From Gammaproteobacteria bacterium (GTDB taxonomy: Bacteria > Pseudomonadota > Gammaproteobacteria > Eutrophobiales > Eutrophobiaceae), in contig JANQNX010000014.1 in assembly GCA_028279365.1 (NCBI GenBank), positions 143,921 to 207,920 of the forward strand: a stretch of DNA of 64,000 nucleotides, read 5' to 3'. Made by a program: the position numbers and the translations under genes. Every line of letters starts with the position of its first letter. Within the stretch, counting starts at the first letter, position 1. This document shows positions 2,914-38,645 of this stretch, piece by piece. The notes beneath the pieces are model-generated. The model saw only the letters and a list, made by a program, of their open reading frames with translations, made no database searches and had not been told where the DNA came from.

Positions 2914-2950
2914 GCTTGAGTCGTTAGCAGTTAATTAACCATATACCTTG

Positions 2951-5588: not shown

Positions 5589-6013
5589 TTGTTTGCCTCG
5601 TGTTGCATTAATAAATTGGCGGCCTCAATCCCCTGGGATTGAAGATAAGTCAGTACCGTTAATAGTCTCTCAATCGAGATAGTCTTATCGCTGGCGATAA
5701 TCAACTCATGTTCAGGTTTGGCTTTGATGATTGTCGGTATCGCATTGCGTAACTCTTCAAACGTTGTAATCGTTTTATCATTTAGCGAGTAACTGTCTTT
5801 GCGGATCTGAAGCATGATGTGTTTCGGCTCATTTACCATCGACAGCTCTTCCATGACACTGGAAGGAAGCTGAATATCAAGTGATTGAAATACCGCCCCT
5901 GCCGTGAGTAGAAAAAACACCAGCATGATAAACAGGATATCCAGCATTGGTGTTAAGTCCGGCGCCAGGTCGGAACCGATATTGCTTTGATGATGGCTTG
6001 GTGTTTTGATCAT
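5585..6013 (-). CDS. exbD: Biopolymer transport protein ExbD
   Basis: 142 aa with a single N-terminal TM helix; ExbD/TolR family. Confidence 0.8.
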   Translation of the reverse strand: MIKTPSHHQSNIGSDLAPDLTPMLDILFIMLVFFLLTAGAVFQSLDIQLPSSVMEELSMVNEPKHIMLQIRKDSYSLNDKTITTFEELRNAIPTIIKAKPEHELIIASDKTISIERLLTVLTYLQSQGIEAANLLMQHEANK

Positions 6014-6591
6014 GCGCTTAGTCTCTCGACATTATTATCAATAAAACTATCTGATGTTTGCTTATCCATCTCGAATGACATGGATAGTTTGTTTAGACGC
6101 AAACAAAGTTTACTGATTTGGCGATCGGCCAGGTGGTGGAACAGGTAAGCCAATAGCAGTGCAGGTAAAGCAATCATCAGTCCTGCCGCCGTCGTTAACA
6201 TCGCTTCCCATAAACCATCAGCAATCATGCTCGGCGAGACCGGTCCGGTTTGCACTGAGATCACTTTAAATGCAGCGATGATCCCAAGTATTGTGCCAAG
6301 CAGTCCGATGATTGGGCTGATGGTACCGATCATGCGCAACAGGCGAGTGCCATTAAAATAACTATGCTGCAATTCAGCCAGCATGATTTCCACCATTTCA
6401 TCACGATTCGGCTTGGGTAAACTTTTATGATCGCTTAAGTAGTCGGACAGTTTGACAAATTGCTGTTCCTGTTTTAACCAGGCATTAGCATGGAATATCA
6501 GCCGCTCGATACTGATCATTACGGTGATGATTGAACAGATGGCGAGCGGCCAGCCCATAATTCCCAGTTGTTGAAACCACTCAGGCAACAT
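6010..6591 (-). CDS. exbB: Biopolymer transport protein ExbB
   Basis: MotA/TolQ/ExbB three-TM protein. Start set at the internal Met (MLPEWFQQ) so it does not overlap hemS by 90 nt; the long ORF extends to 6672. Confidence 0.7.
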   Translation of the reverse strand: MLPEWFQQLGIMGWPLAICSIITVMISIERLIFHANAWLKQEQQFVKLSDYLSDHKSLPKPNRDEMVEIMLAELQHSYFNGTRLLRMIGTISPIIGLLGTILGIIAAFKVISVQTGPVSPSMIADGLWEAMLTTAAGLMIALPALLLAYLFHHLADRQISKLCLRLNKLSMSFEMDKQTSDSFIDNNVERLSA

Positions 6592-7675
6592 GACTGGTTT
6601 CCTTGGCAGGAATAGCGTCAATGATCTCACGCCAAAGTTCGAGTTCAGGGATACCCGGCTTACGTTTACCAAAGAAGGTCACGATCAGTTCACTGTTTGC
6701 ATCAAACAATTCCAAAGCAGTGACGATACCGTCTTCGGTGGGTTTTTTTGTTACCCAGGTATGCGCAATACTATCTTCGTTCAGATGCAGGTTAAACATC
6801 GGGTCAAGCACGTTATACCAGTTCTCATGTTCGACCAGTTTATTGACCGGGCCGGTATGAATTTGTATGCAGCCACGATTACCGACAAACACCATAATCT
6901 CGCATTGTTTATCCCTGGCAAGTTCCAGCATTTGTCTTGACGCAGTATTGTCAACTTCGTAGGCGAGGTTAGTGCCGGCAAAGCGTAAGGCTTGTTCACG
7001 ACCGACCTTGAATTTTTTCAACATTGGGTAAAAATCATGCGTGTCTTTCAGGTTGTTCCAGCTATCACGAAAGCCATCCCAGTCGATTTCATTATCCGGT
7101 TTGTCTGCTGGTTTGGGCTCATAAGCCTCAACCGTAATAACGTTTTCCTGTTTGTCGGCAGTAAATTTTTCTACCAGTGGTTCGAATTCTGTATTGTTTG
7201 ATTTCGTGGTGAGATAGATTTTATGAATCGCAACACCGGCTTTATCAAAAAACTGCAGGCTTTTTCTTGGGCCGCTTTTTGTTTCTTCACTGACGGCAAA
7301 ACAATATTGCCACTGGCTCATAAACAAACGTAGATCGATATCGGGATTCACAAACAATCCCTGTTTCATTTTGCCATGTTCAAAAAACTGTGCATTTTCG
7401 TAAATGCCTTTGCGTTCATGCACGCAATCTTCATTTCTCGTCAGCGCCATTACTTCACCCAGCACATGTACAGATTTTAATATTTCCTGCGGGTTATCAA
7501 TCAGCCTTACGGCGGTTTCACCGACTGATAATGCCAGTAGTTCACCCTCAGAAACGCCCAGTTCATCAGCAATATTTCTGATACGTAAATTGGGCTTATC
7601 TCGTTTAAGCTGTTCGTAACGTTCTTTTAACGTTTTGGTTGCTTCGTTGTTAATTGATGCAGTTGCCTGATTCAT
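6581..7675 (-). CDS. hemS: Cytoplasmic haem-degrading/haem-shuttle protein (HemS/ChuS/HmuS family)
   Basis: 364 aa with a duplicated HemS/ChuX fold and typical position between tonB and exbB in the haem locus. Confidence 0.8.
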   Translation of the reverse strand: MNQATASINNEATKTLKERYEQLKRDKPNLRIRNIADELGVSEGELLALSVGETAVRLIDNPQEILKSVHVLGEVMALTRNEDCVHERKGIYENAQFFEHGKMKQGLFVNPDIDLRLFMSQWQYCFAVSEETKSGPRKSLQFFDKAGVAIHKIYLTTKSNNTEFEPLVEKFTADKQENVITVEAYEPKPADKPDNEIDWDGFRDSWNNLKDTHDFYPMLKKFKVGREQALRFAGTNLAYEVDNTASRQMLELARDKQCEIMVFVGNRGCIQIHTGPVNKLVEHENWYNVLDPMFNLHLNEDSIAHTWVTKKPTEDGIVTALELFDANSELIVTFFGKRKPGIPELELWREIIDAIPAKETSHVA

Positions 7676-7686
7676 GTTTCTCCTCC

Positions 7687-8460
7687 TTATTGGATAACAA
7701 ATTCAATCGGTACGCGTACCCAACTGGTGACAGCCGTACCGTTTTTATTGGTGGGTTCAAATTCCCATTTACGGACAGCGGCAAGCGCCGCCTTATCAAG
7801 TAAAGAATGACCTGATGACTTCATGATTTTTAATTCGCTCGGTAAACCATCTGGCTTGACCAGGGCATGTAAGGTCACGTTACCCTGTTGACCTAACTCA
7901 AGAGCACGACGCGGGTAGCGTGGCGGTGTTTGTTTTCGATATTTTGCATCTTGAACAACCGTTGACAGTTCTTTGCCAACTGCAGGGGCCAATGCCACCG
8001 TCTCAATTCTGGTCGGGTAATTCGTTTCTTTTGTTTCGACCGGTTTTTTTATCTCATTATCGCGTTCGGGTTTTTGAGGTATAGGTTTCGTGATTTGTTG
8101 TTTAACGATTTCGGTTTTTTTAATCACTGGTTTTGGTTCAATGGTCTTTTGAGGTTTAGGCTCGGGTTTGATTTTGGCAATTTTTTTCGGTGCCTGTTTT
8201 TTCGTGACAATCTTTTTCTCTTTAATGACAGGTTTTGGAGGAAGGGGTGGCATCATTGTTTTTATCGGTTCCGGTTTTGGCGCAGGAGCCGCAATGCTCA
8301 TCAAATTGATCTTAATTTGACTGTCGGTAGGTAGTGATATTGAATCGGGTTTAGGCTGGATTAAATTGGCAATAACCAGATTTGCAAACAGCGAAAGGGC
8401 AAGATAGTGAAACCATCTTGCCCTTGGTTCAGATTGTAGGTCGAAACGATCTGCTACCAT
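7687..8460 (-). CDS. tonB: Energy transducer TonB
   Basis: N-terminal TM anchor, long Pro/Lys/Glu-rich spacer (PKPEPIK repeats), conserved C-terminal TonB domain. Confidence 0.75.
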   Translation of the reverse strand: MVADRFDLQSEPRARWFHYLALSLFANLVIANLIQPKPDSISLPTDSQIKINLMSIAAPAPKPEPIKTMMPPLPPKPVIKEKKIVTKKQAPKKIAKIKPEPKPQKTIEPKPVIKKTEIVKQQITKPIPQKPERDNEIKKPVETKETNYPTRIETVALAPAVGKELSTVVQDAKYRKQTPPRYPRRALELGQQGNVTLHALVKPDGLPSELKIMKSSGHSLLDKAALAAVRKWEFEPTNKNGTAVTSWVRVPIEFVIQ

Positions 8461-10532
8461 TGATAGGAGGCCCTCGCGGCGTAACTCCGACCTTCTTCGA
8501 ATAAATCGCCAAAACGCCTGGCATAGGCCTTGTCAGTGATATTCTCAATACCCAGGTCGACAATCAGATTCTCTTTCCCGACCTTGCCTTTCTGCCAACG
8601 GTAGTAAATGTCATAAACTGCATAGCCCTCAGTTTCCTCTTCAGTAGCGGGAATTTCATCATTCTCTTCGGCAAAGCGCCCACGTAAGCCGATAATACTA
8701 TTAACAAAGCTGTAGCTTACGTCTGCGACAAGCGTGCGCGGAATACCGTTGGCGATAAATAGACCGGTGTCGTCATCTTTGGCAGTAATGTGTGAGGCGC
8801 CGACTCTGGCGCGAAAACCATTAAGCTGATATTCGCCTTCAATCTCCCAACCGCGCAACACGGCATTTGGCACGTTAAAGTTGCGCGTGGTACCAGCTGC
8901 GATGTTGACTTCTTGTGTAATAAAATCATCGCCTTCGCTACGATGCCAGGAGCCCTTGATTTGTAACTGGTCATTGCCGATCAAATTAACGAAATCGATA
9001 CCCGCGCCTAACTCAATCGTCGTTACCGTTTCCGGTCTTAAATCTGGGTTAGGTTGAAAAAAGTTATTGGGCGCAAATACGAGGAAAGGAAATGGACAGG
9101 CGCTAATAGGCGTAGCTGGTAAGTTACAACTAGTCGGGAAACCGGCAAAGTGTTGTCCTGCAGGATACAACTCAGTCAGGTTTGGTGCACGAAAAGCCTG
9201 TGCCCAGCTACCGAAGACTAATAAGTTTTCCACAGGCTTATAACTACCGGAAATTTTCGGCGAGAACTGACTCTCATCCTGACTATTACCGTTATTGTCA
9301 TTACTTTGATAACTGTCGTAGCGAACGGCGGGGATTAACAAGAAGTCACCGATCGAGGAGACAATACTCACTTCATCCTGAATATAGAAACCGTAGTTTT
9401 CTGCCTCGGCATTGGGGACACCACCACGTGTGCCGTCTGTGGTTCTGTTGTTATCACCAATCTGCTCGTCCTGATAATACTCAAACCCATAGGAGAGCGT
9501 TTGGTTTAGAAAACCCTGGTCAAAGCGAGATTGGTTATCCAGCGTAAAACCAATGGTTTGGATATCACGTGATTGTACGCGCCCATTATTGGTGCCTGTA
9601 ATGTCGGCTTCTTCGACGCCGGTATCATTCAGATAGACATGCAGCTTTGGTGTCAGCCAGTTGTTGTCGGGGTTTTCATAGTTATATTTAAAACTGAACT
9701 GATAGTCTCTGAACTCTTTATTCAGTATAGGATTGCTATTGGTAATCGTGCCAGCACCGTTATTCGGTTCTCTACCATCGTTGCGCAATATTTGAGAAAT
9801 AAATTTAAACGTATGAAAGTCGTTTAAGGTATATCCTGCCTTGAACAAGCCGGATAACACATGATCCTGTGAACTGAGTTCATTACCGTCTCCTTGTTCA
9901 AGATCGTCGGCATGCCGATAGGTCACACTGCCGAGTAAATCCCAGTTACCGGTTCTGCCGTAAAGTGAGGTGGTTGGCGCATAGTCATCGGTTGCAGTAC
10001 GCACATTAAACGCGGTCATTGCGCCAAAGTTTTCACCGGGCGCTAACAAGTCAGCGGCGTCTTTAGTTTCAAATGCAACTACACCACCGACTGCTCCCCC
10101 GCCATAAATAGCAGAAGAGGCGCCCTTAACGACTTCAACGCGTTTTAATAAAGACGGATCAAGGAAAAAACGACCATCGTGGGCTGATTCAAAGTTTTGT
10201 CGACGGTTATCAATCAAGGTAATAATGGCCTCATCGTCAAAACCACGGATGGATACTGTTTGTCCATTTCGTCGCGGTCCATTGTCAATCTCAACAGACG
10301 TGGTAAATTCGAACAGATCGCCCATATCTGACGCCATCGCATTGCCAGCGGAATCCGCTTCAATAATTGACGTCATGACCGGTACATCGAAGGTGGATTG
10401 TGCACTTCGGGTAGCGTATATGGTGACTTTATCTACCGAAGCGGTGATAACTTTTTGTTCTTCCGCCTTAGCAGAACTGGTGCCAACCATAAAAATAGAT
10501 ACGGCTATTGACAGACATAAAACGCGTCGCAT
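8454..10532 (-). CDS. TonB-dependent outer-membrane haem/haemoglobin receptor
   Basis: Signal peptide, plug domain, 22-strand barrel ending in a C-terminal aromatic residue (ARASYQW). Sits in the haem uptake locus. The FRAP/NPNL-type motif region is present (FRAPNLTELY). Confidence 0.85.
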   Translation of the reverse strand: MRRVLCLSIAVSIFMVGTSSAKAEEQKVITASVDKVTIYATRSAQSTFDVPVMTSIIEADSAGNAMASDMGDLFEFTTSVEIDNGPRRNGQTVSIRGFDDEAIITLIDNRRQNFESAHDGRFFLDPSLLKRVEVVKGASSAIYGGGAVGGVVAFETKDAADLLAPGENFGAMTAFNVRTATDDYAPTTSLYGRTGNWDLLGSVTYRHADDLEQGDGNELSSQDHVLSGLFKAGYTLNDFHTFKFISQILRNDGREPNNGAGTITNSNPILNKEFRDYQFSFKYNYENPDNNWLTPKLHVYLNDTGVEEADITGTNNGRVQSRDIQTIGFTLDNQSRFDQGFLNQTLSYGFEYYQDEQIGDNNRTTDGTRGGVPNAEAENYGFYIQDEVSIVSSIGDFLLIPAVRYDSYQSNDNNGNSQDESQFSPKISGSYKPVENLLVFGSWAQAFRAPNLTELYPAGQHFAGFPTSCNLPATPISACPFPFLVFAPNNFFQPNPDLRPETVTTIELGAGIDFVNLIGNDQLQIKGSWHRSEGDDFITQEVNIAAGTTRNFNVPNAVLRGWEIEGEYQLNGFRARVGASHITAKDDDTGLFIANGIPRTLVADVSYSFVNSIIGLRGRFAEENDEIPATEEETEGYAVYDIYYRWQKGKVGKENLIVDLGIENITDKAYARRFGDLFEEGRSYAARASYQW

Positions 10533-10567
10533 GATAACTCCCTAAAGTTCATGTACGGTGTTTGCTA

Positions 10568-10614
10568 GCTGCCTGGCTGCCTGTAATGGTGGCTGGGTGG
10601 CTGGGTGGCGGGCT
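10568..10614. repeat. Short tandem repeats in hemP-hemR intergenic region / hemR 5' leader
   Basis: CTGCCTGG-CTGCCTG followed by TGGCTGGG-TGGCTGGG-TGGCGGGC on the + strand. On the transcribed strand this gives CCCAGCCA repeats just upstream of the hemR RBS. Confidence 0.5.
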
Positions 10615-10623
10615 ACTTACCTA

Positions 10624-10815
10624 CTACTTGGTTAAGATTAATTTACCGTTGCCGGTTAAACGTAATTTGTATTCCTGGTTATTGTGAACAATGATGATCT
10701 CTCTCTTGCCAGACATGAGTTGTTCGCTCTCGATCCGATCAGAGATGGGGATCATTCTTTGCTGGTCATTAATTTCATTTTTCTGAATCATTATAAAACC
10801 AAGAATAATTCTCAA
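10624..10815 (-). CDS. hemP: Hemin uptake protein HemP/HmuP
   Basis: 63 aa ORF ending ...YKLRLTGNGKLILTK, the hallmark C-terminus of the HemP family. TTG start; an ATG nine codons downstream is an alternative. It is the first gene of the locus. Confidence 0.6.
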   Translation of the reverse strand: MRIILGFIMIQKNEINDQQRMIPISDRIESEQLMSGKREIIIVHNNQEYKLRLTGNGKLILTK

Positions 10816-10827
10816 TTAGAATTTATC

Positions 10828-10848
10828 TAAATAATAATCATTCTCATT
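10828..10848. promoter_or_regulatory. Putative Fur box upstream of hemP
   Basis: TAAATAATAATCATTCTCATT matches the GATAATGATAATCATTATC consensus at about 14/19 positions and lies 13-33 nt upstream of the hemP start. Confidence 0.35.
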
Positions 10849-10932: not shown

Positions 10933-12876
10933 TCAGCTGGCTTTCTTCATTATCAATTTTGATGACGAATCAATATCAAACTGTTGTTTAATGTCCAGTT
11001 GCTCTGCCGTGACAGGTTTACTAAAAATATAACCTTGACCGTATTCACAACCATGATCAATCAGGAACTTTAAGGTATCTTTATCTTCAATGCCTTCAGC
11101 AATGACGACCATCTTGAAGTTTTTTGCCATGTTGATAATGGTCTGAACCATGACCAGCTTTCTTTCATGGGTGACATCCATGAATGAGCGATCAATTTTG
11201 ATCACGTCAAACGGCAGACCATGCAGGGTACTGAGAGAACTGTAACCGGTACCGAAATCATCGAGTAATAAGCGTACACCTATCTCGGATAATTGGTTTA
11301 ATACCTTAACTGATTTCGCATCTTCAGCATAAAAGACACTCTCGGTAATTTCGATATCGAGAGAATTGGGTTGTAATGAATACTTTGATAATAAATCACT
11401 AATAAAGGCGGGTAATTGTTCATTTTTTAATTGATTGGCAGAGACATTCACCGCTACATGGAAGTTATCATGGCCGACCTCGTTCCAGTGTTTACATTGT
11501 TGACATGCCTCTTCCAATACCCATTTACCCATTTCCTGAATCAAGCAGGTTGTTTCCGCGATCGGGATAAATTCTGCAGGTGGGACCATGCCTTTTTCGT
11601 AATGATGCCAGCGAAGCAGTGATTCAACGCCGATAATTTGCATGCTGGACAGGTCAATGATTGGTTGATAGTTGAGTAATAGCTCTTCTTTTTCAATGGC
11701 GTGCCAGATGTCTTTTTCCAACGTTAGTCGATGTGAAGATTTATGGTTGGACGCACATTCGGTGAAGGTTTTATACTGATTTTTACCATTGGCCTTGGCT
11801 TCATACATTGCCAGATCGGCACGCTTTAACAGGCTGGTAGTGTCCAGTCCATCTTTCGGGCAATGTACAATGCCAATACTGGCCGATATGTACATCTGAT
11901 TACAATCAATCTTGAAAGACTTACTCAAGCTTGCCAGTATTTTTTCAGAGACCTTATGCGCATGCATTATCGAATCGGGACCGGATAATAGTAGTAAGAA
12001 CTCATCACCGCCAAACCGAGCCAATGTGTCACTTTTTCTCAGACACTGTTGCATGCGCAGCGATGCTTCCTTGATGACGTTATCTCCCGCATCGTGTCCC
12101 AGGGTATCGTTAATCAATTTAAATCGATCAAGGTCAATGTATAACATTGAGAAAGACGTGTTATAGCGAATCGCATTACGAATTTGTTTATCCAGAATTT
12201 CAAGAAACAAATTACGATTGGGAATATTGGTTAATGTGTCATAGTAAGCCAGCTTATTATTTTCATCTTTCTTTTGATTCAGCAGGTTGATTGTTTCATA
12301 GAGGCGATCGGTGTTGAGATTGATGTGTCGAAAAACCACAATACTTACCATGATGATGAGTATGGAAAACGGCACCATTAACCAAAACACCAGCTGGATA
12401 GTATGGTGGCTAATGTTATCAATTTGAGCCACTAAATTTGTCAGGTTCATTTTGAATGTGCGCAGGGCATATTCAATGGTGTCGACCATGATAATGTCGC
12501 TGATGGCATATGATTCATCACTATCCAGATCCACCAGCAGCTCTTGCAGCATCTTTTCTTCTTTAATGCATGATTGCAGTGCTTGTTGCAGATCCTGATT
12601 AAGAATGATAATCGGATTCAAACTCTGCAGTTTTTCCTGACAAGACCTGGGGTGCTGTCCAAGTGTTTGCAGTTGTTCCCGAATATCAATTTTCATTAAC
12701 GGTGACTCAGGAAAGTTGTTTAACGTCTCTGATAATTCATGCACATGATTGAGAAACGCCAGGTTGTCATTATGGATACTAATGACGTTTGACAGTTGAA
12801 TGATGGAATACATGACCGAAGACACGAACAGCGCTGTGATTCCGAGTATGAGGTGTAATCGGGATGAGGTTTTCAT
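10933..12876 (-). CDS. Membrane-anchored GGDEF-EAL c-di-GMP turnover protein with periplasmic sensor region
   Basis: Two TM helices flank a roughly 130 aa loop. GGDEF motif RFGGDEF. EAL domain has an ESLLR variant of the EAL motif together with the DDFGTG, KIDRSF and IAEGIE motifs. Confidence 0.85.
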   Translation of the reverse strand: MKTSSRLHLILGITALFVSSVMYSIIQLSNVISIHNDNLAFLNHVHELSETLNNFPESPLMKIDIREQLQTLGQHPRSCQEKLQSLNPIIILNQDLQQALQSCIKEEKMLQELLVDLDSDESYAISDIIMVDTIEYALRTFKMNLTNLVAQIDNISHHTIQLVFWLMVPFSILIIMVSIVVFRHINLNTDRLYETINLLNQKKDENNKLAYYDTLTNIPNRNLFLEILDKQIRNAIRYNTSFSMLYIDLDRFKLINDTLGHDAGDNVIKEASLRMQQCLRKSDTLARFGGDEFLLLLSGPDSIMHAHKVSEKILASLSKSFKIDCNQMYISASIGIVHCPKDGLDTTSLLKRADLAMYEAKANGKNQYKTFTECASNHKSSHRLTLEKDIWHAIEKEELLLNYQPIIDLSSMQIIGVESLLRWHHYEKGMVPPAEFIPIAETTCLIQEMGKWVLEEACQQCKHWNEVGHDNFHVAVNVSANQLKNEQLPAFISDLLSKYSLQPNSLDIEITESVFYAEDAKSVKVLNQLSEIGVRLLLDDFGTGYSSLSTLHGLPFDVIKIDRSFMDVTHERKLVMVQTIINMAKNFKMVVIAEGIEDKDTLKFLIDHGCEYGQGYIFSKPVTAEQLDIKQQFDIDSSSKLIMKKAS

Positions 12877-15313: not shown

Positions 15314-16696
15314 ATGAAACGAAGCAAGATTAAAACATTGTTAAATGCCAGTCAGCCAGAGAACAGTGTGTTGTTAAAAGGCTGGGTTCGTACCTTACGA
15401 GAAAGTAAAAACTTTTCGTTTATCGAATTGAATGATGGTTCTTGTTTAGCCAACATACAGGTTATTGTTGATGAAGACCTTGGTAACTATGCAGACGTAG
15501 TCAAACTGACAACCGGTGCAGCGGTTACCGTAACCGGTGAATTAATTGAGTCACCCGGCAAAGGACAGAATTGGGAAGTGCGTGCTGCTGAGGTCGAAGT
15601 ATTAGGTACGGCACCGGATGATTATCCGTTACAAAAGAAACGCCACACTGATGAATATCTGCGCACGATCGCGCATTTGCGCCCGCGTTCCAATAAATAT
15701 GGCGCAATCTTTCGAATACGATCAAAGCTGTCCTATGCGATTCATCAGTTTTTTCAGGAACGCGACTTCAAATGGATTCACACGCCTATCATCACCGGCT
15801 CCGATTGCGAAGGTGCGGGTGAGATGTTTCGTGTGACAAGCTTTGATTTGGAAAATGTACCGAAACAAAATGGCAAGGTCGATTTCAATGAAGACTTCTT
15901 TGGCAAAGAGGCCAACCTGACGGTTTCCGGTCAGTTATCGGTGGAAACCTTCGCGACCAGCCTGGGCGATGTGTACACTTTCGGTCCAACGTTTCGCTCC
16001 GAGAATTCAAACACCAGTCGGCATATGGCCGAGTTCTGGATGATCGAACCGGAGATGGCCTTTGCCGACCTTCAGGATGATATGGCGTTGGGCCAGGAAT
16101 TTATTCAATACCTGGTTAACTACACGATAAATGAATGTGCCGAAGACCTGGAACTGTTTGCCAAATTTGTCGATAAGAATTTAATGACGACGCTTAATAA
16201 CATCGTCAGTCATGATTTTGTCCGGTTACCTTATACTGAGGCCATCACTATTCTCGAACAGTCGGGCAAAAAGTTTGAGTATGACGTTGTCTGGGGTAAT
16301 GACCTGCAGTCAGAACACGAACGCTTTTTAACCGAAGAACATTTTAAACAACCGGTTATCGTTTACGATTATCCTAAAGATATCAAAGCATTTTACATGC
16401 GCATGAATGATGATGAAAAAACCGTGGCAGCGATGGATATCCTGGTACCGGCGATTGGTGAAATCATCGGCGGTTCACAGCGCGAAGAACGTCATGATGT
16501 ATTAACCAGACGTATAAATGAACTCGGGTTTGATGAAGTGGATTACTGGTGGTATCTGGATACACGAAAATACGGTACCGTGCCGCATGCCGGATTTGGT
16601 TTGGGTTTTGAAAGGTTGTTAATGTTGGTGTCAGGTATCTCAAACATCCGCGATGTGATTCCGTTTCCGAGAACGCCAAAGCATCTAGAGTTTTAA
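15314..16696 (+). CDS. asnS: Asparagine--tRNA ligase
   Basis: Near full-length collinearity with E. coli AsnS (GWVRTxRxSK, [25 protein letters not shown]). AGGAAAC RBS; start at MKRSKIK. Confidence 0.9.
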
Positions 16697-16768
16697 TCTT
16701 ACGATTAACACTTAAATATTTCTTTAAGATTAAATTGAATGTGTTTAATTATTGATGCGAGATTTTGA

Positions 16769-17386
16769 TTGGCCGAGCTAACGGTTTTTGGAACCGAAGG
16801 GTATCAGCAGAATATCAATCGATTTGTTGAAATCAGTCAGTCTCTGGATTTCCAAGAGGTATGCAAAGACTTTATTAATTTTTTACCTGGTAAGAACGCG
16901 CATGTACTTGATCTGGGGGCGGGCGTTGGTCAAAACGCTGCCGCTTTGGATAAACTGGGTTTTAACGTTACAGCCATCGAACCTATACAGGATTTTGTAG
17001 ATGTGGCCCAAAAAACATATACCAATACCTCGGTAAATTGGCTTTGCGATAGCTTGCCCGATATGCACTGCCTTGAAGACAAGCGAATAAAGTTTGAATT
17101 TATTTTAATCGAGGGCGTTTGGCACCACCTTGATGAAACAGAAAGAACAAAAGCAGCAAATCGATTATCTACATTAATTAGCAAACATGGTAAATGTGCT
17201 ATTTCGCTAAGAAATGGTCCTCCTGGTTTGGGCACAAAGGTCTATCCGACAGACCCGGATAAAACAGTTACATTATTTATGAATCACGGCTTTAGCTGCC
17301 TCTTTAAAATACAAAATCAGCCAAGTATCTTAGCCAATAAAGAGCAGGTTTCATGGGCTAGAGTTGTGTTCGAAAAAACTAGATGA
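16769..17386 (+). CDS. Class I SAM-dependent methyltransferase
   Basis: Motif I VLDLGAGVGQNAAAL. Apparent TTG start, so the start is uncertain. Confidence 0.55.
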   Translation: MAELTVFGTEGYQQNINRFVEISQSLDFQEVCKDFINFLPGKNAHVLDLGAGVGQNAAALDKLGFNVTAIEPIQDFVDVAQKTYTNTSVNWLCDSLPDMHCLEDKRIKFEFILIEGVWHHLDETERTKAANRLSTLISKHGKCAISLRNGPPGLGTKVYPTDPDKTVTLFMNHGFSCLFKIQNQPSILANKEQVSWARVVFEKTR

Positions 17387-17466
17387 ATCACTCTGTATTT
17401 GTAAAATACATTTCCTTCGCAAAGCGTTATCCTTAAGCGTCGCTATCTCTTTTTATCCATGACTAT

Positions 17467-18099
17467 TTAGTAGGTTAATTCCGGATCTACGCATTCGTAA
17501 ATTTGTCCAATGCTATCTTCTCGCTTAAGTAGTTGCAGGCTTAGCCTTGCGACTTCACTGCGAGTGATCAGTCCGTGAACTTCCTGGTGCTGCGATAGCT
17601 TCCCAGTATTTGTAATGTCACCATTCTTCAAACCACCCGGACGTAGAATAGTAAAATCCAGCTGACTGCTTTGAAGCCAAGCTTCTGCCAGCGATTTTTC
17701 TCTAACGGCTTTACCAAAGCCTTGCCTTGAACGCTCGGATAAATATCTCCATGAATCACCGCAGCCAAGCGATGTGATGAATAAAAATCGGGCGTGTTCA
17801 AACTGCTCCAAGGCATCAATCAGATGGCGATGCCCGATGTAATCAACAGGAACCTCGGCTTGAAAACTACCCATTGTCGAAATAGTGATGATTCCTTTTG
17901 GTAGCTTGCTAACGGTAGTAAATATCTGCTCTTTGTTAGTGGCATCACAAACCATATAATCGATGTTGAGCTCACTAATGCGTGGATTTTTATCCGGATT
18001 TCTGACGATAGCAGTGATAGCAAGGTCTTGTTCATGAAAATAGTCGAGCATAGCGGCACCAAGCCCGCTAGCAGCCCCCCATATTGCAATCTTGTTCAT
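17467..18099 (-). CDS. NAD(P)H-binding oxidoreductase (NmrA/YwnB-like atypical SDR)
   Basis: N-terminal GAASGLG dinucleotide-binding motif; 210 aa. Confidence 0.65.
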   Translation of the reverse strand: MNKIAIWGAASGLGAAMLDYFHEQDLAITAIVRNPDKNPRISELNIDYMVCDATNKEQIFTTVSKLPKGIITISTMGSFQAEVPVDYIGHRHLIDALEQFEHARFLFITSLGCGDSWRYLSERSRQGFGKAVREKSLAEAWLQSSQLDFTILRPGGLKNGDITNTGKLSQHQEVHGLITRSEVARLSLQLLKREDSIGQIYECVDPELTY

Positions 18100-18256
18100 A
18101 CATATATCTCTTTATAGTAACAGTAGTAAATAGCCTGCATTATTTATTGCTAATTGACCAGCCTCGATAATGTAGAACCATGTTTAATCTCGTAGAACCT
18201 ATCAAGACAAACATATAACCGATAGTATTAATGACACTCTTTTGTATTAATAACGC

Positions 18257-18275
18257 GATAAAGATTGTCATGATA
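18257..18275. promoter_or_regulatory. Fur-box-like element upstream of small membrane protein gene
   Basis: GATAAAGATTGTCATGATA matches the Fur consensus at 14/19 positions, 32 nt upstream of the 18307 start. Weak. Confidence 0.25.
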
Positions 18276-18306
18276 AGATAAAGGCGAATATTAACCGGGT
18301 TCGTTA

Positions 18307-18687
18307 ATGCCTCCATTATTACTCTACGCCTTTATTCTTTTCACTGTTGCGCTGGTGTTGTATACCGTCAGTGTCTGGAGCGAGAGGTATCAGAAGCGTT
18401 TGAAAGTCTGGCACCTTGTTGTATTTGGGCTTGGTGTTGTTATCGATATGGCCGCTACCTGGCTAACTATCGAGTTTGTCGGTGCAGTAGTATTCACGCC
18501 GCATGCGATATTTGGTTTCACTTCTCTGTTTCTCATGGCCTTGCATTTTGTTTGGGCGGTTGCGGTCTATATTGGTGATAGAGACGCTGGCAAGAGGCAG
18601 TTCCATCGCTTCAGCATATTAGTTTGGTCGATTTGGCTATTGTCTTATACCACTGGTCTTGTAAGTGGTATGCAAAGGATCATATGA
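18307..18687 (+). CDS. Small integral membrane protein (4 TM), unknown function
   Basis: 126 aa with four predicted TM helices, divergent from the 17467-18099 gene. I could not confirm the family from sequence. Confidence 0.5.
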   Translation: MPPLLLYAFILFTVALVLYTVSVWSERYQKRLKVWHLVVFGLGVVIDMAATWLTIEFVGAVVFTPHAIFGFTSLFLMALHFVWAVAVYIGDRDAGKRQFHRFSILVWSIWLLSYTTGLVSGMQRII

Positions 18688-32775: not shown

Positions 32776-32815
32776 TTAATCACCGACTTTCATTTCTTTT
32801 TTTTCTCTTATAGCG

Positions 32816-32850
32816 TTGACTAGTTATCTAACGATACGAGTCAAAGTCAA
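32816..32850. promoter_or_regulatory. Operator-like hexamer repeats upstream of rpfF-like gene
   Basis: TTGACT-N17-AGTCAA-AGTCAA: an inverted repeat plus a tandem copy of the same hexamer, about 77 nt upstream of the ATG at 32927. Confidence 0.25.
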
Positions 32851-32926
32851 TTTCTTTTAATTTTACTTTCGGATTCATCGTTAGCTCTGACGAATTATGC
32901 AGTAAACATTTTTCAGGAGCACTACC

Positions 32927-33832
32927 ATGAAGACATTAGATTTTTTAGCTAAAAAAGTAACCGATGATTTAAAACATATCGATTATCAGTTTGATGAATC
33001 AGAAGGGCTCATATGGGTTTATCTGGATGCCAGTCCAAGACCCTGTGTGACGCCTCAGCTTGTCAATGATATTCGTAATTTACATAGAACTATTGAAATC
33101 AATCACGGCAAGCTGCCGACAAAGAATGGATTGAAAACGGTGAAATACCATGTGCTTGATGCGCATGCAGACGGTGTTTTCAGTCTTGGCGGTGACCTTG
33201 CCTATTTTCTTCAGTGTTTAAAAACCAAAGATAGAATCGCGTTAAAGAATTATGCAAGAAGCTGTGTCAACGCCATTTATCCCATCATGGTCGATTTTGA
33301 ATTGCCTATTACTACAATTTCATTAGTCAGGGGTAATGCTCTTGGTGGCGGTTTTGAAATTGCCTTGTCGGGAGATGTTGTTATTGCTGAACGTTCTGCG
33401 CAAATGGGTTTTCCGGAAATACTCTTCAACACGTTTCCAGGTATGGGTGCATTTCAATCGTTAAGCTATCGCGTTGGGCTTAATCAGGCTAGCAAGATGA
33501 TAAAGAGTGCCAAGTTATATCAGGCCGAAGAACTCTATAACATGGGTATCGTTGACATTTTAGTCGATGACCACTCTGGTGAAGAAGCGGTTTATTCATT
33601 TATCCAGGATAACAACAAGCACTGGAATGGTAACAAGTCGATACAGTCTGTCTCCAATCGGCTTAAGCATTTTGAATATCGGGAAATTATGGATATTTGT
33701 TGTAACGACTGGGTGAATTCAGTCTTCAGTATGTCTGAAAGAGATATGCGAACGGTATCCCGGTTGTTGCGAAGTCAACAACGATATGTCTCAGACAATA
33801 AAGCCCAGGCATTGCGTCACGTCTCTGCTTAA
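32927..33832 (+). CDS. rpfF: DSF-family signal synthase (RpfF-like crotonase)
   Basis: Crotonase fold collinear with Xanthomonas RpfF (as I recall it): VFSLGGDLAYF, GNALGGGFEIALS, GFPEILFNTFPGMGA with both catalytic Glu retained, and a C-terminal ...RDMRTVSRLLRSQ tail. AGGAG RBS. Confidence 0.75.
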   Translation: MKTLDFLAKKVTDDLKHIDYQFDESEGLIWVYLDASPRPCVTPQLVNDIRNLHRTIEINHGKLPTKNGLKTVKYHVLDAHADGVFSLGGDLAYFLQCLKTKDRIALKNYARSCVNAIYPIMVDFELPITTISLVRGNALGGGFEIALSGDVVIAERSAQMGFPEILFNTFPGMGAFQSLSYRVGLNQASKMIKSAKLYQAEELYNMGIVDILVDDHSGEEAVYSFIQDNNKHWNGNKSIQSVSNRLKHFEYREIMDICCNDWVNSVFSMSERDMRTVSRLLRSQQRYVSDNKAQALRHVSA

Positions 33833-33871
33833 AAAAAACATTCATAATTTTCAAATTCAAAGGAGTAAAAA

Positions 33872-34984
33872 ATGAATACTATTGGTACGAAAAGTTTAAG
33901 GCCTTCAATATCAGAGTTTGTAAACCCATCTAACAAGACAGCTCTTGTTATATTTTTAATAGATATGACAATCTATGTCAGTGCAGTGGCCGGGATCATA
34001 TTTTTTGAAAGCCTTGTGTTAAAGGCATTATGTAGTATTTTATGTGGACTAAAAATGGCCTCGCTATTTGTTATTGCACATGATGCAGCACATGACAATT
34101 ACACAAAAAGTAAATGGCTAAATAAAGTGATTGCTCGATTGGCATTCTTACCGTGTTACCACAATTATAGTTTGTGGTTGATTGTTCACAACCGTTTGCA
34201 CCATCAGCTGACAAATATAAAGGGGGTCAATTCCTGGTCGCCGCTATCAAAACAAGATTTTGATAATTTGCCAAAATACCGCCAGTTATTGGAAAAGTTT
34301 TACAGAAGTCCATTTGGTATTAGTTTTAATTATATGATTGAGCGTTGGTTAAAGGATAAATTTTTTCCTTTTGTCAGACTGACAAAAGGAAAAAATGGAG
34401 CACACTGGCTGGATTTCACTATGGTTTCAGGTTTTCTTTTTTCACAGATCATGTTTTTCACATACTTGGGCTTTGTCTCTCCGGAAATAGGTGTGTTCGG
34501 TTCTTTATTGTTGGGAGTCGTTGCTCCATTTATGGTTTTTTGTTACATGGTTGGTTTCTCGGTGTATCAGCAGCATACGCATGAAATGGTACCGTGGTTT
34601 ACCACGCTGGAGGAGAGGGATGCATGTTGTGATGTAGAGGATTTAACAATACATGTTAAATACCCAAAGTGGTATAACTTGATCAGTCATAATGTGATGG
34701 AACACACTGCACATCATGTTGATCCCAGAATTCCGTCCTATGAGTTATCAAAAGCGCAGTCTGTATTACTGAAAGTTCTGGGCGATGATATCTTATCGAT
34801 TAATTTTTCGTTTTCCGATTTCATAAAAACCATGCAGCTATGTAAGTTATATGATTATGACACGCATTGCTGGCTTGATTTTGATGGCAATGTTACGAAC
34901 CCAACAGTACTAGCTTTTATAAAAGATAAGGATCATTCTGTCAATGGTTCGAGGACAGTTGATGAGTTTCCTAATGCGGCATAA
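33872..34984 (+). CDS. Membrane fatty-acid desaturase (three His-box family)
   Basis: His boxes HDAAHD, HNRLHH and HTAHH plus TM segments. AAAGGAG RBS. It lies 39 nt after the rpfF-like gene, so the two are likely co-transcribed. Confidence 0.8.
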   Translation: MNTIGTKSLRPSISEFVNPSNKTALVIFLIDMTIYVSAVAGIIFFESLVLKALCSILCGLKMASLFVIAHDAAHDNYTKSKWLNKVIARLAFLPCYHNYSLWLIVHNRLHHQLTNIKGVNSWSPLSKQDFDNLPKYRQLLEKFYRSPFGISFNYMIERWLKDKFFPFVRLTKGKNGAHWLDFTMVSGFLFSQIMFFTYLGFVSPEIGVFGSLLLGVVAPFMVFCYMVGFSVYQQHTHEMVPWFTTLEERDACCDVEDLTIHVKYPKWYNLISHNVMEHTAHHVDPRIPSYELSKAQSVLLKVLGDDILSINFSFSDFIKTMQLCKLYDYDTHCWLDFDGNVTNPTVLAFIKDKDHSVNGSRTVDEFPNAA

Positions 34985-35009
34985 TTAAATCGCGATAACC
35001 CCTAAAGAA

Positions 35010-35031
35010 AACCAGACAGGGAAGTCTGGTT
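35010..35031. terminator. Bidirectional terminator hairpin between convergent desaturase and sensor-kinase genes
   Basis: AACCAGAC-AGGGAA-GTCTGGTT, a perfect 8 bp stem, in the 49 nt convergent gap. Confidence 0.5.
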
Positions 35032-35033
35032 AT

Positions 35034-37547
35034 TTAGTTAGATAAGTTTGATTTACGTTGTTCCACATAGGAATAAAGCGCTGTTTTACTTTCTTTAAAC
35101 ACTTCTTTGAGTTCTATCAAAAGCGATGATAAATCATCATGGTTTTTCGATCTGGAAGCTTTGTAAATATTATCGGCAGATTTCGATAAGCGGGTAGCGC
35201 CAATTGAACGTGAACTGCCGTCCAATGTATGAGCATGTTCGTCTATATTATTGTAACTATTCTGGCTAACGGCATTATCGAGTTTTGTTATTGTTTCTTC
35301 TGCATCTTTGCAGAAATTACTGACAAGGTCAGCGACAAAGTTTTTTGTTTTAGACATTTGATTGAGCGAATCGAGTAAATCAGAGTCTATGATCGGCAAA
35401 TTTTTAGGATCGTTGATACTGACAATATTATGAGGAGAACTATTATCAGAGATGATATGCATATTTTTATCTCTATAAAGATCAGTAACTGTGTTTAATA
35501 GTCTTTCCGGTTCAATAGGTTTAGTGAGAAAGGCATCCAGTCTTGCTTCTTTACATGCCTCATAGGCTTCTTTCGTTGCGTTGGCCGTCAACATGATTAT
35601 TGGAATATGCCTGTTCTCCGGATACATGAAACGATACATCTTGGCGGCTTCAATGCCGTTCATAATCGGCATATGCATATCAAGTATGATGAGATCGTAT
35701 TCCTTCTGTTCCAGATAATCTAGAATAATTTCGCCATTTTCAACGATAGTCACCTGATGATTGCCGTGTTCGAGTATATTGCGAATTACCTTTTGATTGG
35801 TTTCATTATCCTCACCGACAAGTATGCTTAGGCTTTTACGGGCATAATCTGTGTTAAGTTCTGGTTCTCTCAATATGTTTCTTCCTGAATTGTCTGCATA
35901 GTCATTGGCAGCAACAAGAGCATGTAACGACCTGAATAATGATGTTCTTTCGGGCTTACTACTTATTATGGAGGCATAGCCAGCCGCCAGCTGATTACTG
36001 ATTTCACTATTATTATCAGTACAATCCGAGACCAATATTGCATGTGTATTCTTACTTATTGATTTAATTTCGTTGATTAACAGGAACGGGGAGGTATCCA
36101 GCTGCCGTTGAAAAACTAATGCAATCTGATAGCGACGATTTTCCATCATTTCTAACGCGCTGTGTGCATCGGTTGCCAGGTCAAAATCGATCATCCAGTT
36201 TTTAAGCTGTTCTGAAATATAATGATTTTGCTCAGTATTTGATGTAATCAATATGATGTTTGATTTATTAAGCTGTTCTAGCGAATGCTTTTCCTCAGAC
36301 AATACCTTTTGTCTTTGCAACATCAATTCAAACCAAAATGCGGAACCTTTATTTAATTTGCTGCTAAAGTCGATCACGCCACCCATTGCCTCAACTAGCT
36401 GTTTGGCTATTGCCATGCCAAGGCCTGTGCCGCCAAACTTCCTGGTTGTCGATTCATCGGCCTGGGTGAATTTTTCAAAAAGTTTGGCTTTTGATTCTTT
36501 CGGAATGCCAATTCCCGTATCAACAATTTTGAACCTCAGTTTAACGTCTGTATCCATGATCAAAATCGGTTCTACGTATATCTGGATTGAACCTTGTTCA
36601 GTGAACTTAATCGCATTGCTAATTAAATTAATAATAATTTGACGTAAATGTTGTTCATCTCCACGTAATAGAAAAGGGATTTCCGGTGATATGTGTATGT
36701 TAAGTACTAGTCCTTTATGTTCTGCTTGCGGCGCGAGCATATGTGAAGTTGAGTTAACCAATGAATGCAAGTCAAAGTCTACTTCTTTAATTGTCGTTTT
36801 GCCGGCCTCGATTTTTGATATATCCAGGATGTCATTAATCAGTGCCAGCAAAGTTTTTGCAGACGCTTTTATTGTTGACGCATAGTCCTTTTGTTGAATG
36901 TCAAGATCAGTTTTGTCAAGCAAGCCACTCATACCAATTACGCCATTCAGCGGTGTACGTATTTCATGACTCATATTTGCCAGAAATTGACTTTTTGCTT
37001 CATTTGCCGCCTCGGCAGAATTAATGGCTTTTCGTAACTGTGATATCAGTGTGGATACGTATACGGTCAAAATTATGATAGTGACTAAAAAACCATAGCT
37101 AAGAAATTTCTGTTCATGCCAGTATTCAACGTTGGTTAACACAAAACAAAAGCCAATAATGCTTAACAACATGCACGAGAACAAGTATTTATTACCGTAA
37201 CGAAAACCATATCCAAATGTGATGAATAGATAAGAGCCGATTAAGGGTGCACCATAACTACCTAAATGATACAAGGCATATGAAATGAGAACCGCATCGG
37301 AAATCATACCTATGTACCTCCTGTATGGAAGAGGTTTAGGGTTAAGAACCACCCAACAAAAAATTGCAATGCAAATTAAGAGATATTGAATTGGCGCTAT
37401 AACGGCTTGCGGAGGAAGTAATCTATATTCATATTCAATCCATAAAATATAAAAAAGCCAGATTGTTCCCATTATTAGTTTGACGAAGCACTGTATATGT
37501 TCAGAGTCCTCTCTGTTCTCCAGCCGACTTTTGATTATGTTAAACAT
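35034..37547 (-). CDS. rpfC: RpfC-like hybrid sensor histidine kinase (5TM-HisKA-HATPase-REC-HPt)
   Basis: N-terminal 5-TM sensor. H-box [10 protein letters not shown]. HATPase G-boxes. An intermediate receiver-like segment. A receiver domain ([14 protein letters not shown]). C-terminal HPt ([13 protein letters not shown]). The gene is markedly AT-rich. Confidence 0.85.
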
Positions 37548-37580
37548 TAGTACAACCTATGTTAAGTAACGCTATCGAGT

Positions 37581-38645
37581 CTATCGATTGTTATCTTGAA
37601 TATTAACTATATCAAGCAATGCATCGACACAAGCAGGATCGAAATGTTTACCTTTTTCAGAGATGAGGTATTCCTTGGCATGCTCAATTGGCCATGCTTT
37701 TTTATAAGGACGTTGATTGGTTAACGAATCAAATACATCAGCAACCGCAGTTATTCTTGCTTCAATCGGAATCTCGGATTCGCCTATCGCGTTGGGATAG
37801 CCTTTGCCGTTGTATTTTTCGTGATGATTAAGCGCGATGATTGCACCTGTTTGTAAATAAGGAGAGGGACTGTCTTTCAATAATTCATAGCCAATCTCTG
37901 TATGCGATTTCATTATAGTAAATTCTTCGCCAGTTAATTTACCTTGTTTCATCAGGATGTTATCTGCAATTGCAATCTTGCCTACATCATGCAGTGGAGA
38001 AGCCAGCTTGATTATTTCCGCCCGTTCTGCATCGATCCCCATCTTTATTGAGATTTGATGTGCAAATGAGGCGATACGTTTGAGGTGTTCCCCGGTAATG
38101 CAGTCTTTAAACTCGCAGGCACGGGTCAATCGATTCAGCGTTTCCTGTTCTCTCAGTAATAGTTCATCTGAATTGCGGTTGACTAAAAACTGAAGTACGT
38201 CTGTTTTATGTTCCAGACGCGATTGATGTTTGGACAAGGCCAGCAAATTTTTACATCGGGCTTTACATTCAGCTTGATCAAAGGGTTTATTGAGGAAATC
38301 ATTTACGCCAGATTCAAGTGCATTATGTAACGTCGATTTATCATCCATGATAGTGATCATGATAACGGGCACGTTTTTACAGCCCGGCACATGTCTTACC
38401 GACTGTGTGAATTCAATACCATTCATCTCCGGCATTTTAAAATCGGTAATAATGAGATCAGGGGGGCTGAGTCTGGCATCGGTTAATGCCGCCAAAGGGT
38501 GTTTGAACGCCCGGATCTGTATATCAGAATCAATGTTTCTGACAATCTCGGTCAGGATATTCAGGCTGACCGACTGATCGTCAACTATCATGACAGTTGA
38601 AGCCGAGTAATTTGCCGATATATCGTCGATAGAAATGGGTAGCAT
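37581..38645 (-). CDS. rpfG: RpfG-like response regulator with HD-GYP phosphodiesterase domain
   Basis: REC domain (VMIVDDQ...ITDFKMPEMNG) fused to HD-GYP (HLKRIASFAH, HDVGK, HHEKYNGKGYP). The GYP box has Asn in place of the usual Asp. Confidence 0.8.
   Translation of the reverse strand: MLPISIDDISANYSASTVMIVDDQSVSLNILTEIVRNIDSDIQIRAFKHPLAALTDARLSPPDLIITDFKMPEMNGIEFTQSVRHVPGCKNVPVIMITIMDDKSTLHNALESGVNDFLNKPFDQAECKARCKNLLALSKHQSRLEHKTDVLQFLVNRNSDELLLREQETLNRLTRACEFKDCITGEHLKRIASFAHQISIKMGIDAERAEIIKLASPLHDVGKIAIADNILMKQGKLTGEEFTIMKSHTEIGYELLKDSPSPYLQTGAIIALNHHEKYNGKGYPNAIGESEIPIEARITAVADVFDSLTNQRPYKKAWPIEHAKEYLISEKGKHFDPACVDALLDIVNIQDNNR

Follow-up and report, generated by a model that had tools for sequence, protein, structure and literature searches.

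A cluster for Rpf-type diffusible signal factor (DSF) signalling, with a membrane fatty-acid desaturase gene in its synthase operon, lies within a stretch of 64,000 nt on contig JANQNX010000014.1 (the window, to which all coordinates are relative) from an uncultured marine gammaproteobacterium. The explanation that we find best for the locus as a whole, and lean towards slightly, is a long-resident DSF cluster in which the desaturase would tailor the signal. The open reading frame (ORF) check gave four genes with the coordinates and strands that had been claimed by an earlier, sequence-only reading of this DNA:

32927..33832, plus strand: rpfF-like DSF synthase, a crotonase of 301 amino acids (aa), recognised by ECH_1, NF006452 and RpfF matches in the PDB
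33872..34984, plus strand: membrane fatty-acid desaturase family protein, 370 aa, recognised by PF00487 and three His boxes
35034..37547, minus strand: rpfC-like hybrid sensor kinase, 837 aa, recognised by its HisKA-HATPase-REC-HPt domains and sensor motif
37581..38645, minus strand: rpfG-like response regulator, 354 aa, recognised by REC and an HD-GYP phosphodiesterase domain

The first gene product has the crotonase (enoyl-CoA hydratase, ECH) fold according to Pfam (ECH_1, 1.6e-22, 80.5 bits; ECH_2, 42.8 bits), and its closest PDB matches are RpfF proteins, led by that of Xanthomonas campestris pv. campestris (Xcc; 3m6m, 5e-44) and followed by 6dgn, 5fus and 7zq7. These RpfF proteins score 148-154 bits, against at most 58 bits for other crotonases, the next of which, a generic ECH, reaches only 8e-15. 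Two of the three motifs named in the sequence-only reading are present as GGDLAYF and GNALGGGFE; the third reads GFPEILFNTFPGMGA, with I in place of the claimed V. The catalytic glutamates had been read correctly: E144 and E164 align with E141 and E161 of Xcc RpfF (the PDB chain numbering in this alignment is the native numbering plus 16), and both are invariant across 25 crotonase homologues. The residues that we take to line the pocket in the Xcc structure (G85, L136, G137, G138, M170, W258 and L276) are all identical in the aligned window crotonase.

Family models agree in part. The window crotonase passes the NCBIfam umbrella model NF006452 (303 bits, cutoff 177), and the next named enzyme model after the RpfF equivalog stands at 73 bits. 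For calibration, Xcc RpfF scores 549 bits on the RpfF model and 402 on NF006452, while the sequence of PDB 6dgn, which we take to be a validated synthase of the BDSF type, scores 185 and 399. The 6dgn score of 185 implies that the narrow RpfF model is specific to Xanthomonas, DSF synthases in general being covered by NF006452. In a neighbour-joining (NJ) tree of 96 sequences, Xcc RpfF and 6dgn nest among crotonase homologues that adjoin RpfC-like kinases. Clustering with ordinary enoyl-CoA hydratases had been named beforehand as the outcome that would speak against a DSF synthase; by PDB scores, NCBIfam scores and the tree, the protein instead falls with the DSF synthases. As predicted from its sequence, the crotonase is a DSF-synthase-type enzyme.

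The convergent genes would encode the matching receptor and its partner. The HisKA, HATPase_c, REC and Hpt domains of the kinase all score above their Pfam cutoffs, with the H-box at H194, and follow each other in the RpfC order HisKA-HATPase-REC-HPt that the sequence-only reading had assigned. Five hydrophobic segments are seen by hydropathy within residues 1-170 (approximately 19-38, 46-66, 79-103, 119-139 and 146-168, the third being weak), and the N-terminal tail before the first of them measures about 17-18 residues. Immediately before the first transmembrane segment (TM1), residues 12-19 (window 37491-37514) read REDSEHIQ, which matches residues 15-22 of Xcc RpfC (RADSEHAQ) at six of eight positions with the same spacing. 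In Xcc RpfC, R15, D17, S18, E19 and Q22 are required for DSF sensing (Cai et al. 2017, PMC5391125); all five of these essential sensor residues are kept in the window kinase, as R12, D14, S15, E16 and Q19. The best REC-only PDB match of the kinase REC domain is the REC domain of Xcc RpfC (3m6m_D, 1.1e-25).

The regulator is a REC and HD-GYP protein, as had been read (REC, 87 bits; HD_5, 110 bits; also HD), with its HD motif at residue 219, its GYP motif at residue 282 and the HD-GYP protein 4mcw as best PDB match (1.8e-50). A genome scan, made with one genome per species, returned 80 loci from Gamma-, Beta-, Alpha- and Zetaproteobacteria. The majority have the crotonase gene facing that of a full-length kinase homologue, and behind the latter an HD-GYP gene is often present. 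The canonical rpfGHC layout likewise has rpfG and rpfC in an operon convergent to rpfF (PMC4504480). We hold with high confidence that the cluster would be a working-type Rpf/DSF system.

What departs from the canonical gene set is the second gene. Its product matches PF00487 (87.9 bits, 1.2e-24) and carries the three His boxes that had been claimed for it (H70DAAH, H106NRLHH and H278TAHH), together with H97 and H235, further invariant histidines of the desaturase family. The AlphaFold2 (AF2) model is of good quality (pLDDT 87, pTM 0.87) and finds an FAD-like protein as its best PDB fold match (TM-score 0.74); the solved structures retrieved were limited to a Chlamydomonas FAD-like subunit and AlkB, neither of them informative about the substrate. 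On the models of the characterised bacterial enzymes DesA (delta-5) and DesB (delta-10) it scores 47 and 40 bits, with cutoffs of 500, and NCBIfam adds weak matches to the hydroxylase models GntB and CrtR. Outside the Pfam domain, residues ~310-340 hold a C-terminal motif that is invariant in the family, C-K-L-Y-D-Y-D..W..F.G, which forms a small β-sheet in the model.

A di-iron enzyme of this fold could in principle act otherwise than as a desaturase. The desaturase-like membrane protein UndB, also a di-iron enzyme, works on free fatty acids and has been paired with thioesterases in engineered pathways (PMC11204201, PMC12746148). A UndB-like enzyme in the cluster would oxidatively decarboxylate the free fatty acids released by RpfF, or elsewhere by a DUF4442 thioesterase, to volatile 1-alkenes, besides or instead of the DSF acid, and the recurrent thioesterase-like partner of the desaturase (RpfF or DUF4442, described below) would suit such a free-acid substrate. 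However, the desaturase family profile has no significant similarity to three UndB sequences (E-values 0.46-3, in a three-sequence search of optical-character-recognition text with small errors from a paper supplement), and the alignment is confined to the His boxes. The chemistry also speaks against it, since a cis-2-enoic acid lacks the saturated α-β bond that UndB-type decarboxylation turns into a terminal double bond. We rejected the UndB-like candidate on these sequences and consider decarboxylation very improbable.

The four genes form two convergent operons, rpfF-desaturase on the plus strand and rpfG-rpfC on the minus strand, among which three short elements were located:

32816..32844, unstranded: dyad-symmetric element TTGACTAGTTATCTAACGATACGAGTCAA, read directly in the ispF-rpfF intergenic region about 100 nt 5' of rpfF
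33861-33866: AAGGAG ribosome-binding site before the desaturase ATG
35010..35031, unstranded: terminator-like bidirectional hairpin AACCAGAC-AGGGAA-GTCTGGTT, reported on both strands

The desaturase gene belongs to the synthase operon, as the sequence-only reading had it: the gap behind the crotonase gene is indeed 39 nt, the ribosome-binding site precedes the start codon, no terminator was found between rpfF and the desaturase gene, and the pairing recurs in relatives. On the opposite strand the regulator gene lies 33 nt upstream of the kinase gene. The hairpin falls within the 49-nt gap between the desaturase stop (34984) and the kinase stop (35034) and is common to both operons. In an alignment of the upstream regions of 11 loci, the palindrome at 32816-32844 is kept at the equivalent site while its sequence drifts (ATCGTTAAACGAT, CATCATGTGATG, TTGATGTCTGG..CCAGACATCAA). 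Such positional conservation with sequence drift is suggestive of a site bound by a dimeric regulator, and the palindrome may serve the synthase operon as an operator or as part of its promoter.

Among the relatives, designated here by locus number, the arrangement of rpfF-desaturase facing rpfC is found at the same position in L002, L082-L085, L090, L091 and L166-L171. A metagenome scan seeded with the desaturase returned homologues of at least 47% identity, and on every contig long enough to show their neighbours these are linked to rpf genes. Elsewhere, more distant members of the desaturase clade also stand with rpf genes, in five or more further gene arrangements and frequently with a gene for a DUF4442 hotdog protein. 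A Steroidobacteraceae metagenome-assembled genome (MAG) has rpfF-desaturase (L026), and a Methylotenera MAG has desaturase-rpfF with the gene of a FadL/TodX-type outer-membrane fatty-acid channel directly upstream (L042, 5665-9201), which fits with fatty-acid signal traffic. DUF4442-desaturase pairs stand inside or beside rpfF/rpfC/rpfG clusters in varied gene orders in L089 (1134-4418), L111 (1881-7077), L116 (1327-3786), L117 (1824-4806) and L118 (1750-6487). The marine clade that includes the window has the desaturase without DUF4442. That the desaturase recurs together with a sensor and with an acyl-thioester-cleaving protein, be it RpfF or one of hotdog fold, points to the production of a free fatty-acid signal, not to bulk lipid remodelling.

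A further arrangement of the same desaturase clade was observed with no rpf genes nearby. Here a DUF4442 gene (PF14539, hotdog-fold) lies directly upstream of the desaturase gene, with a convergent gene for a Crp/Fnr-type regulator (cNMP_binding and HTH_Crp_2). The DUF4442-desaturase-Crp/Fnr trio occurs in L095, L096, L097, L101, L103, L105 and L106 (5385-7810), in a soil-type subclade, and has the look of another, as yet uncharacterised, fatty-acid module with a putative sensor of its own.

The adjacency of FadL to the desaturase-rpfF pair in L042 is also what one might see if the protein served in signal turnover, as an oxidase that hydroxylates, epoxidises or desaturates DSF or free fatty acids and thus limits signal accumulation in the manner of RpfB-dependent turnover. 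The FA_desaturase superfamily does include hydroxylases and other oxidases, in keeping with the weak GntB and CrtR matches, and rpfB is absent from the cluster. A quencher placed directly behind the synthase in one operon would, however, be self-defeating, and the receptor co-variation described next better suits an altered ligand. We regard turnover as an improbable role, and return to a desaturase that tailors the signal.

The receptor bears on such tailoring too. In all 13 desaturase-carrying loci of the clade that has the cluster between ispF and smr, the kinase has Ser at the position of Xcc S18, within the motif R[EA]DSEHxQ; five of the 13 (L166 and L168-L171) were read after the pattern had been noticed. 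Clade loci that lack the desaturase have either Ala (L001, L163 and L165) or Thr (L004, L005 and L006) there, and L121, whose desaturase gene is broken (1465-2473), has Thr. These Ala and Thr loci form at least four separate branches on the crotonase tree. In Xcc RpfC, the S18A variant loses sensing and S18T is tolerated (PMC5391125). The pattern was found by reading kinase N-termini; a scan for discriminating residues did not flag the Ser column, possibly owing to gaps near the N-terminus. A second candidate discriminator of desaturase presence in the kinase, RpfC W30, was discarded, being broken by L170. That the desaturase would change what the receptor sees is, in our view, a good lead.

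Within the clade the crotonase and desaturase NJ trees are roughly congruent, which fits an ancestral desaturase with several losses. Decay of the cluster is frequent among the relatives: L003 retains an rpfF remnant (10001-10846) and no kinase gene, rpfG is truncated or split in L085 (9696-10265) and L168 (10717-11821), and it is absent from L170, L171, L091 and L005; some of these decayed clusters could be assembly errors. Additions are seen as well. L170 has two genes with cNMP_binding domains between ispF and rpfF (1851-3787), and the desaturase-carrying loci L002 (~16000-18500) and L084 have, between rpfG and smr, a second hybrid kinase paralogue that is 46-49% identical to the window kinase.

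By homology, the RpfF-type crotonase would dehydrate a 3-hydroxyacyl-acyl carrier protein (ACP) supplied by fatty-acid synthesis and cleave the thioester to give a cis-2-unsaturated fatty acid. The co-transcribed desaturase would modify the acyl chain, most likely by an extra double bond, to give a dienoic DSF-family molecule analogous to CDSF. Some delta-12-type desaturases introduce the new double bond at a distance of three carbons from one already present; as a speculation, the same placement on a cis-2 substrate would yield a 2,5-diene, the CDSF skeleton. In the marine clade, the thioesterase activity of RpfF itself would replace the DUF4442 hotdog protein. The RpfC-type kinase would bind the signal at the juxtamembrane REDSEHIQ, autophosphorylate and relay the phosphoryl group through REC and HPt to the RpfG-type regulator, whose HD-GYP domain would then degrade cyclic di-GMP (c-di-GMP), as homology suggests. 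Strains that carry the desaturase would use a signal dialect differing from that of relatives without the gene. From gene linkage and co-variation, we put signal tailoring by the desaturase at even or marginally better than even. A broader proposal, which we advance tentatively and judge to be rather short of even, would add that an abundant marine lineage uses a DSF-family signal, modified by the desaturase perhaps to a 2,5-diene or with some other extra unsaturation, that has so far been unknown; that the receptor position (Ser versus Ala or Thr) has co-evolved with it to separate the dialects of sister strains; and that DUF4442-desaturase is a portable module for making fatty-acid signals, serving either Rpf or Crp/Fnr-type sensing.

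Several observations weigh against this reading. The window crotonase falls below the cutoff of the NCBIfam RpfF equivalog NF053515 (184 bits against 550), and all trees are NJ trees without a crotonase outgroup. The desaturase is dispensable, being absent from the relatives whose crotonases are closest to that of the window (75% identity in L162, 70% in L163 and L164, 68% in L001 and 64-65% in L165). The co-variation of Ser with the desaturase is a raw count, uncorrected for kinship between loci, and outside the clade the rule breaks in both directions: desaturase without Ser in L042, L111 and L118, and Ser without desaturase in L011, L019 and L059. No pocket residue of RpfF co-varies with desaturase presence, and two positions in the C-terminal tail alone discriminate. 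Membrane desaturases of this kind normally use lipid- or CoA-bound acyl chains, whereas RpfF converts acyl-ACP to a free acid, and this mismatch of carriers leaves the chemical coupling of the two enzymes unexplained.

A rival reading takes the system for an ordinary Rpf system in which the desaturase is a homeostatic membrane-lipid enzyme, its expression coupled to signal production through the shared operon. It would adjust unsaturation or fluidity and offset the drain on acyl-ACP by the broad thioesterase activity of RpfF, much as RpfB does in Xanthomonas through the reactivation of free fatty acids. The JGI annotation, which labels the homologues acyl-lipid omega-6 desaturases, counts both against signal tailoring and for lipid homeostasis. 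The best fold match to an FAD-type protein and the repeated loss of the desaturase while rpfF and rpfC were kept also speak for lipid homeostasis. The side activity of RpfF as a thioesterase and its counteraction by RpfB are established (PMC4504480), and rpfF of X. oryzae reportedly affects membrane integrity (PMC8659556). One would, however, not expect to find a housekeeping desaturase beside rpf in six or more separate arrangements and taxa. Nor would one expect it to be paired with a small hotdog thioesterase-like protein or to co-vary with the ligand-contact Ser of RpfC, and its scores on the DesA and DesB models are far under the cutoffs. On balance we think lipid homeostasis unlikely, and continue to favour a signal-tailoring desaturase.

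The history of the locus bears on the other half of our explanation. The sequence-only reading had taken the cluster for a recently and horizontally acquired island set between unrelated housekeeping loci, and its base composition gives this some colour: the four genes have 37-42% GC, against 45.2 ± 2.5% for the 46 other ORFs of the window, and so lie 3-8 points under the window mean. The gene content at the site also differs among relatives. The kinase gene, whose GC had been put at about one-third, measures 37.7%. GC at third codon positions (GC3) is 0.37-0.41 in the cluster against 0.44 ± 0.04 in the window, within about one to two standard deviations, and is lower still in the flanking ispF (0.32).

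Comparison of the window with ten relatives, by synteny and by per-gene GC and GC3, contradicts recent acquisition. The gene order pyrG-kdsA-eno-ftsB-ispD-ispF-[rpf]-smr-purL was seen in all relatives examined, some of them on contigs of 2.4-2.9 Mb, with the site filled in each. The view of ispF and smr/purL as unrelated loci joined by the block is not borne out; ispF-[rpf]-smr-purL is the standard address of the cluster in this lineage. Relatives with the cluster at this site have crotonases between 75% and 41% identical to that of the window, and ispF identity falls from 76% to 55%, and the site is still occupied in L004-L006, L090 and L091, where the crotonase is 41-47% identical. Across loci the GC of the flanking genes ranges from ~39% to 65% and that of the rpf genes from ~35% to ~65%, with the same small deficit throughout, so that rpf GC follows the host. 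A tRNA scan found no tRNA gene in the window, though integrases and flanking repeats were not searched for; Rfam and tRNA scans found no RNA genes there. The roughly congruent desaturase and crotonase trees likewise fit vertical descent with repeated losses. Judged from synteny and composition, the cluster is chromosomal and long resident, without recent acquisition, and we give the acquired island almost no weight. As to the host lineage, its nearest GyrA proteins (83-90% identity) all come from MAGs or metagenomes, in many cases marine ones, and the lineage has many marine metagenome matches, including TARA.

In the window itself the cluster is flanked by ispD-ispF upstream and by the genes for an Smr protein and purL downstream. 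The sequence-only reading had these flanks right in ispF, Smr and purL; its naming of the Smr protein as SmrB finds no support, the SmrA model scoring higher than SmrB, with both below cutoff. Elsewhere in the window, 10933-12876 (minus strand) encodes a GGDEF-EAL protein of 647 aa, with about 200 N-terminal residues of no assigned domain, in a stretch of lower GC (0.41); this adds a gene for c-di-GMP turnover, at a distance of 20 kb from that of the HD-GYP regulator. A haem uptake cluster occupies 2951-10532 (minus strand), with a TonB-dependent receptor, TonB, HemS/ChuX, ExbD, a periplasmic binding protein, an FecCD permease and an ABC ATPase.

The literature searched held nothing relevant on a linkage of DSF/RpfF with a desaturase or of DUF4442 with a desaturase; in the DSF papers found, 'desaturase' refers to the dehydratase step of RpfF itself or to unrelated genes. 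The claim that a cluster of this composition had gone undescribed therefore agrees with the literature searched. The possibility, raised with that claim, that the four-gene arrangement is a common and already characterised locus holds in its first part, as it is common in relatives, and not in its second. The desaturase is the non-canonical part of the cluster, and the rpf cluster with a desaturase is widespread yet uncharacterised.

DSF signalling has been studied almost wholly in plant and human pathogens, where signal diversity has been put down to the specificity of RpfF and to the pool that fatty-acid synthesis provides. If our reading is true, such diversity could also arise in a new way, from an enzyme that is encoded with the synthase and dedicated to tailoring the signal. 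The lineage would then offer a natural system for signal-receptor co-evolution, with strains that have or lack the desaturase differing at a receptor residue essential for DSF sensing. A widespread marine lineage that is still uncultured would, besides, have a DSF circuit with all its parts; surveys of marine metagenomes have tallied rpfF there but did not look at its gene context.

Compared with the rpf locus of Xanthomonas campestris, the window cluster shares a crotonase synthase with the same pair of catalytic glutamates, an rpfG-rpfC operon convergent to rpfF, and an RpfG of REC and HD-GYP domains. The RpfC proteins also agree in their HisKA-HATPase-REC-HPt order and R-x-D-S-E-H-x-Q motif, and probably in a short N-terminal sensor with a multi-TM input. 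It differs in having neither rpfB nor rpfH and in the membrane desaturase after rpfF; moreover, its crotonase is distant from Xcc RpfF, as the score on the RpfF model shows, and its host is no xanthomonad. The absence of rpfB, which the sequence-only reading had rightly noticed, does not distinguish the cluster. Clusters of rpfF-rpfG-rpfC without rpfB are known from Methylophaga, Thiobacillus, Leptospirillum and Methylobacillus, while Xylella and Burkholderia have an rpfB that is not linked to the other rpf genes (PMC4504480).

These non-xanthomonad clusters share the same three-gene core, and in our genome scan the Methylophaga, Thiobacillus and Methylotenera loci have the same layout, with the crotonase gene facing a histidine kinase-HD-GYP gene pair. 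Their descriptions mention no desaturase, whereas the window and its relatives add one, sometimes with DUF4442 or FadL. To our knowledge, the signals of the Methylophaga, Thiobacillus, Methylobacillus and Leptospirillum clusters are largely uncharacterised. The BDSF system of Burkholderia and Cronobacter (RpfF_Bc/DfsA with RpfR) has a synthase in the same umbrella family NF006452, and the window crotonase scores nearly equal to 6dgn on the RpfF model; there, however, the receptor is the cytoplasmic PAS-GGDEF-EAL protein RpfR, unlike the membrane RpfC-type kinase and its HD-GYP partner here.

Two chemical precedents complete the comparison. The 1-alkene routes that combine UndB with a thioesterase likewise join a membrane desaturase-fold di-iron enzyme to a thioester-freeing enzyme, but the sequence likeness is limited to the His boxes, and the UndB pairing is engineered and not a natural operon with a sensor kinase. 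The other precedent is CDSF (cis,cis-11-methyldodeca-2,5-dienoic acid), a dienoic signal already known within the DSF family (PMC4504480). It is a precedent for a second double bond and for the product class that we propose for the window cluster. The second double bond of CDSF comes from unsaturated fatty-acid synthesis intermediates, and we know of no dedicated desaturase reported for it; in the window cluster, by contrast, that bond would come from a separate membrane desaturase.

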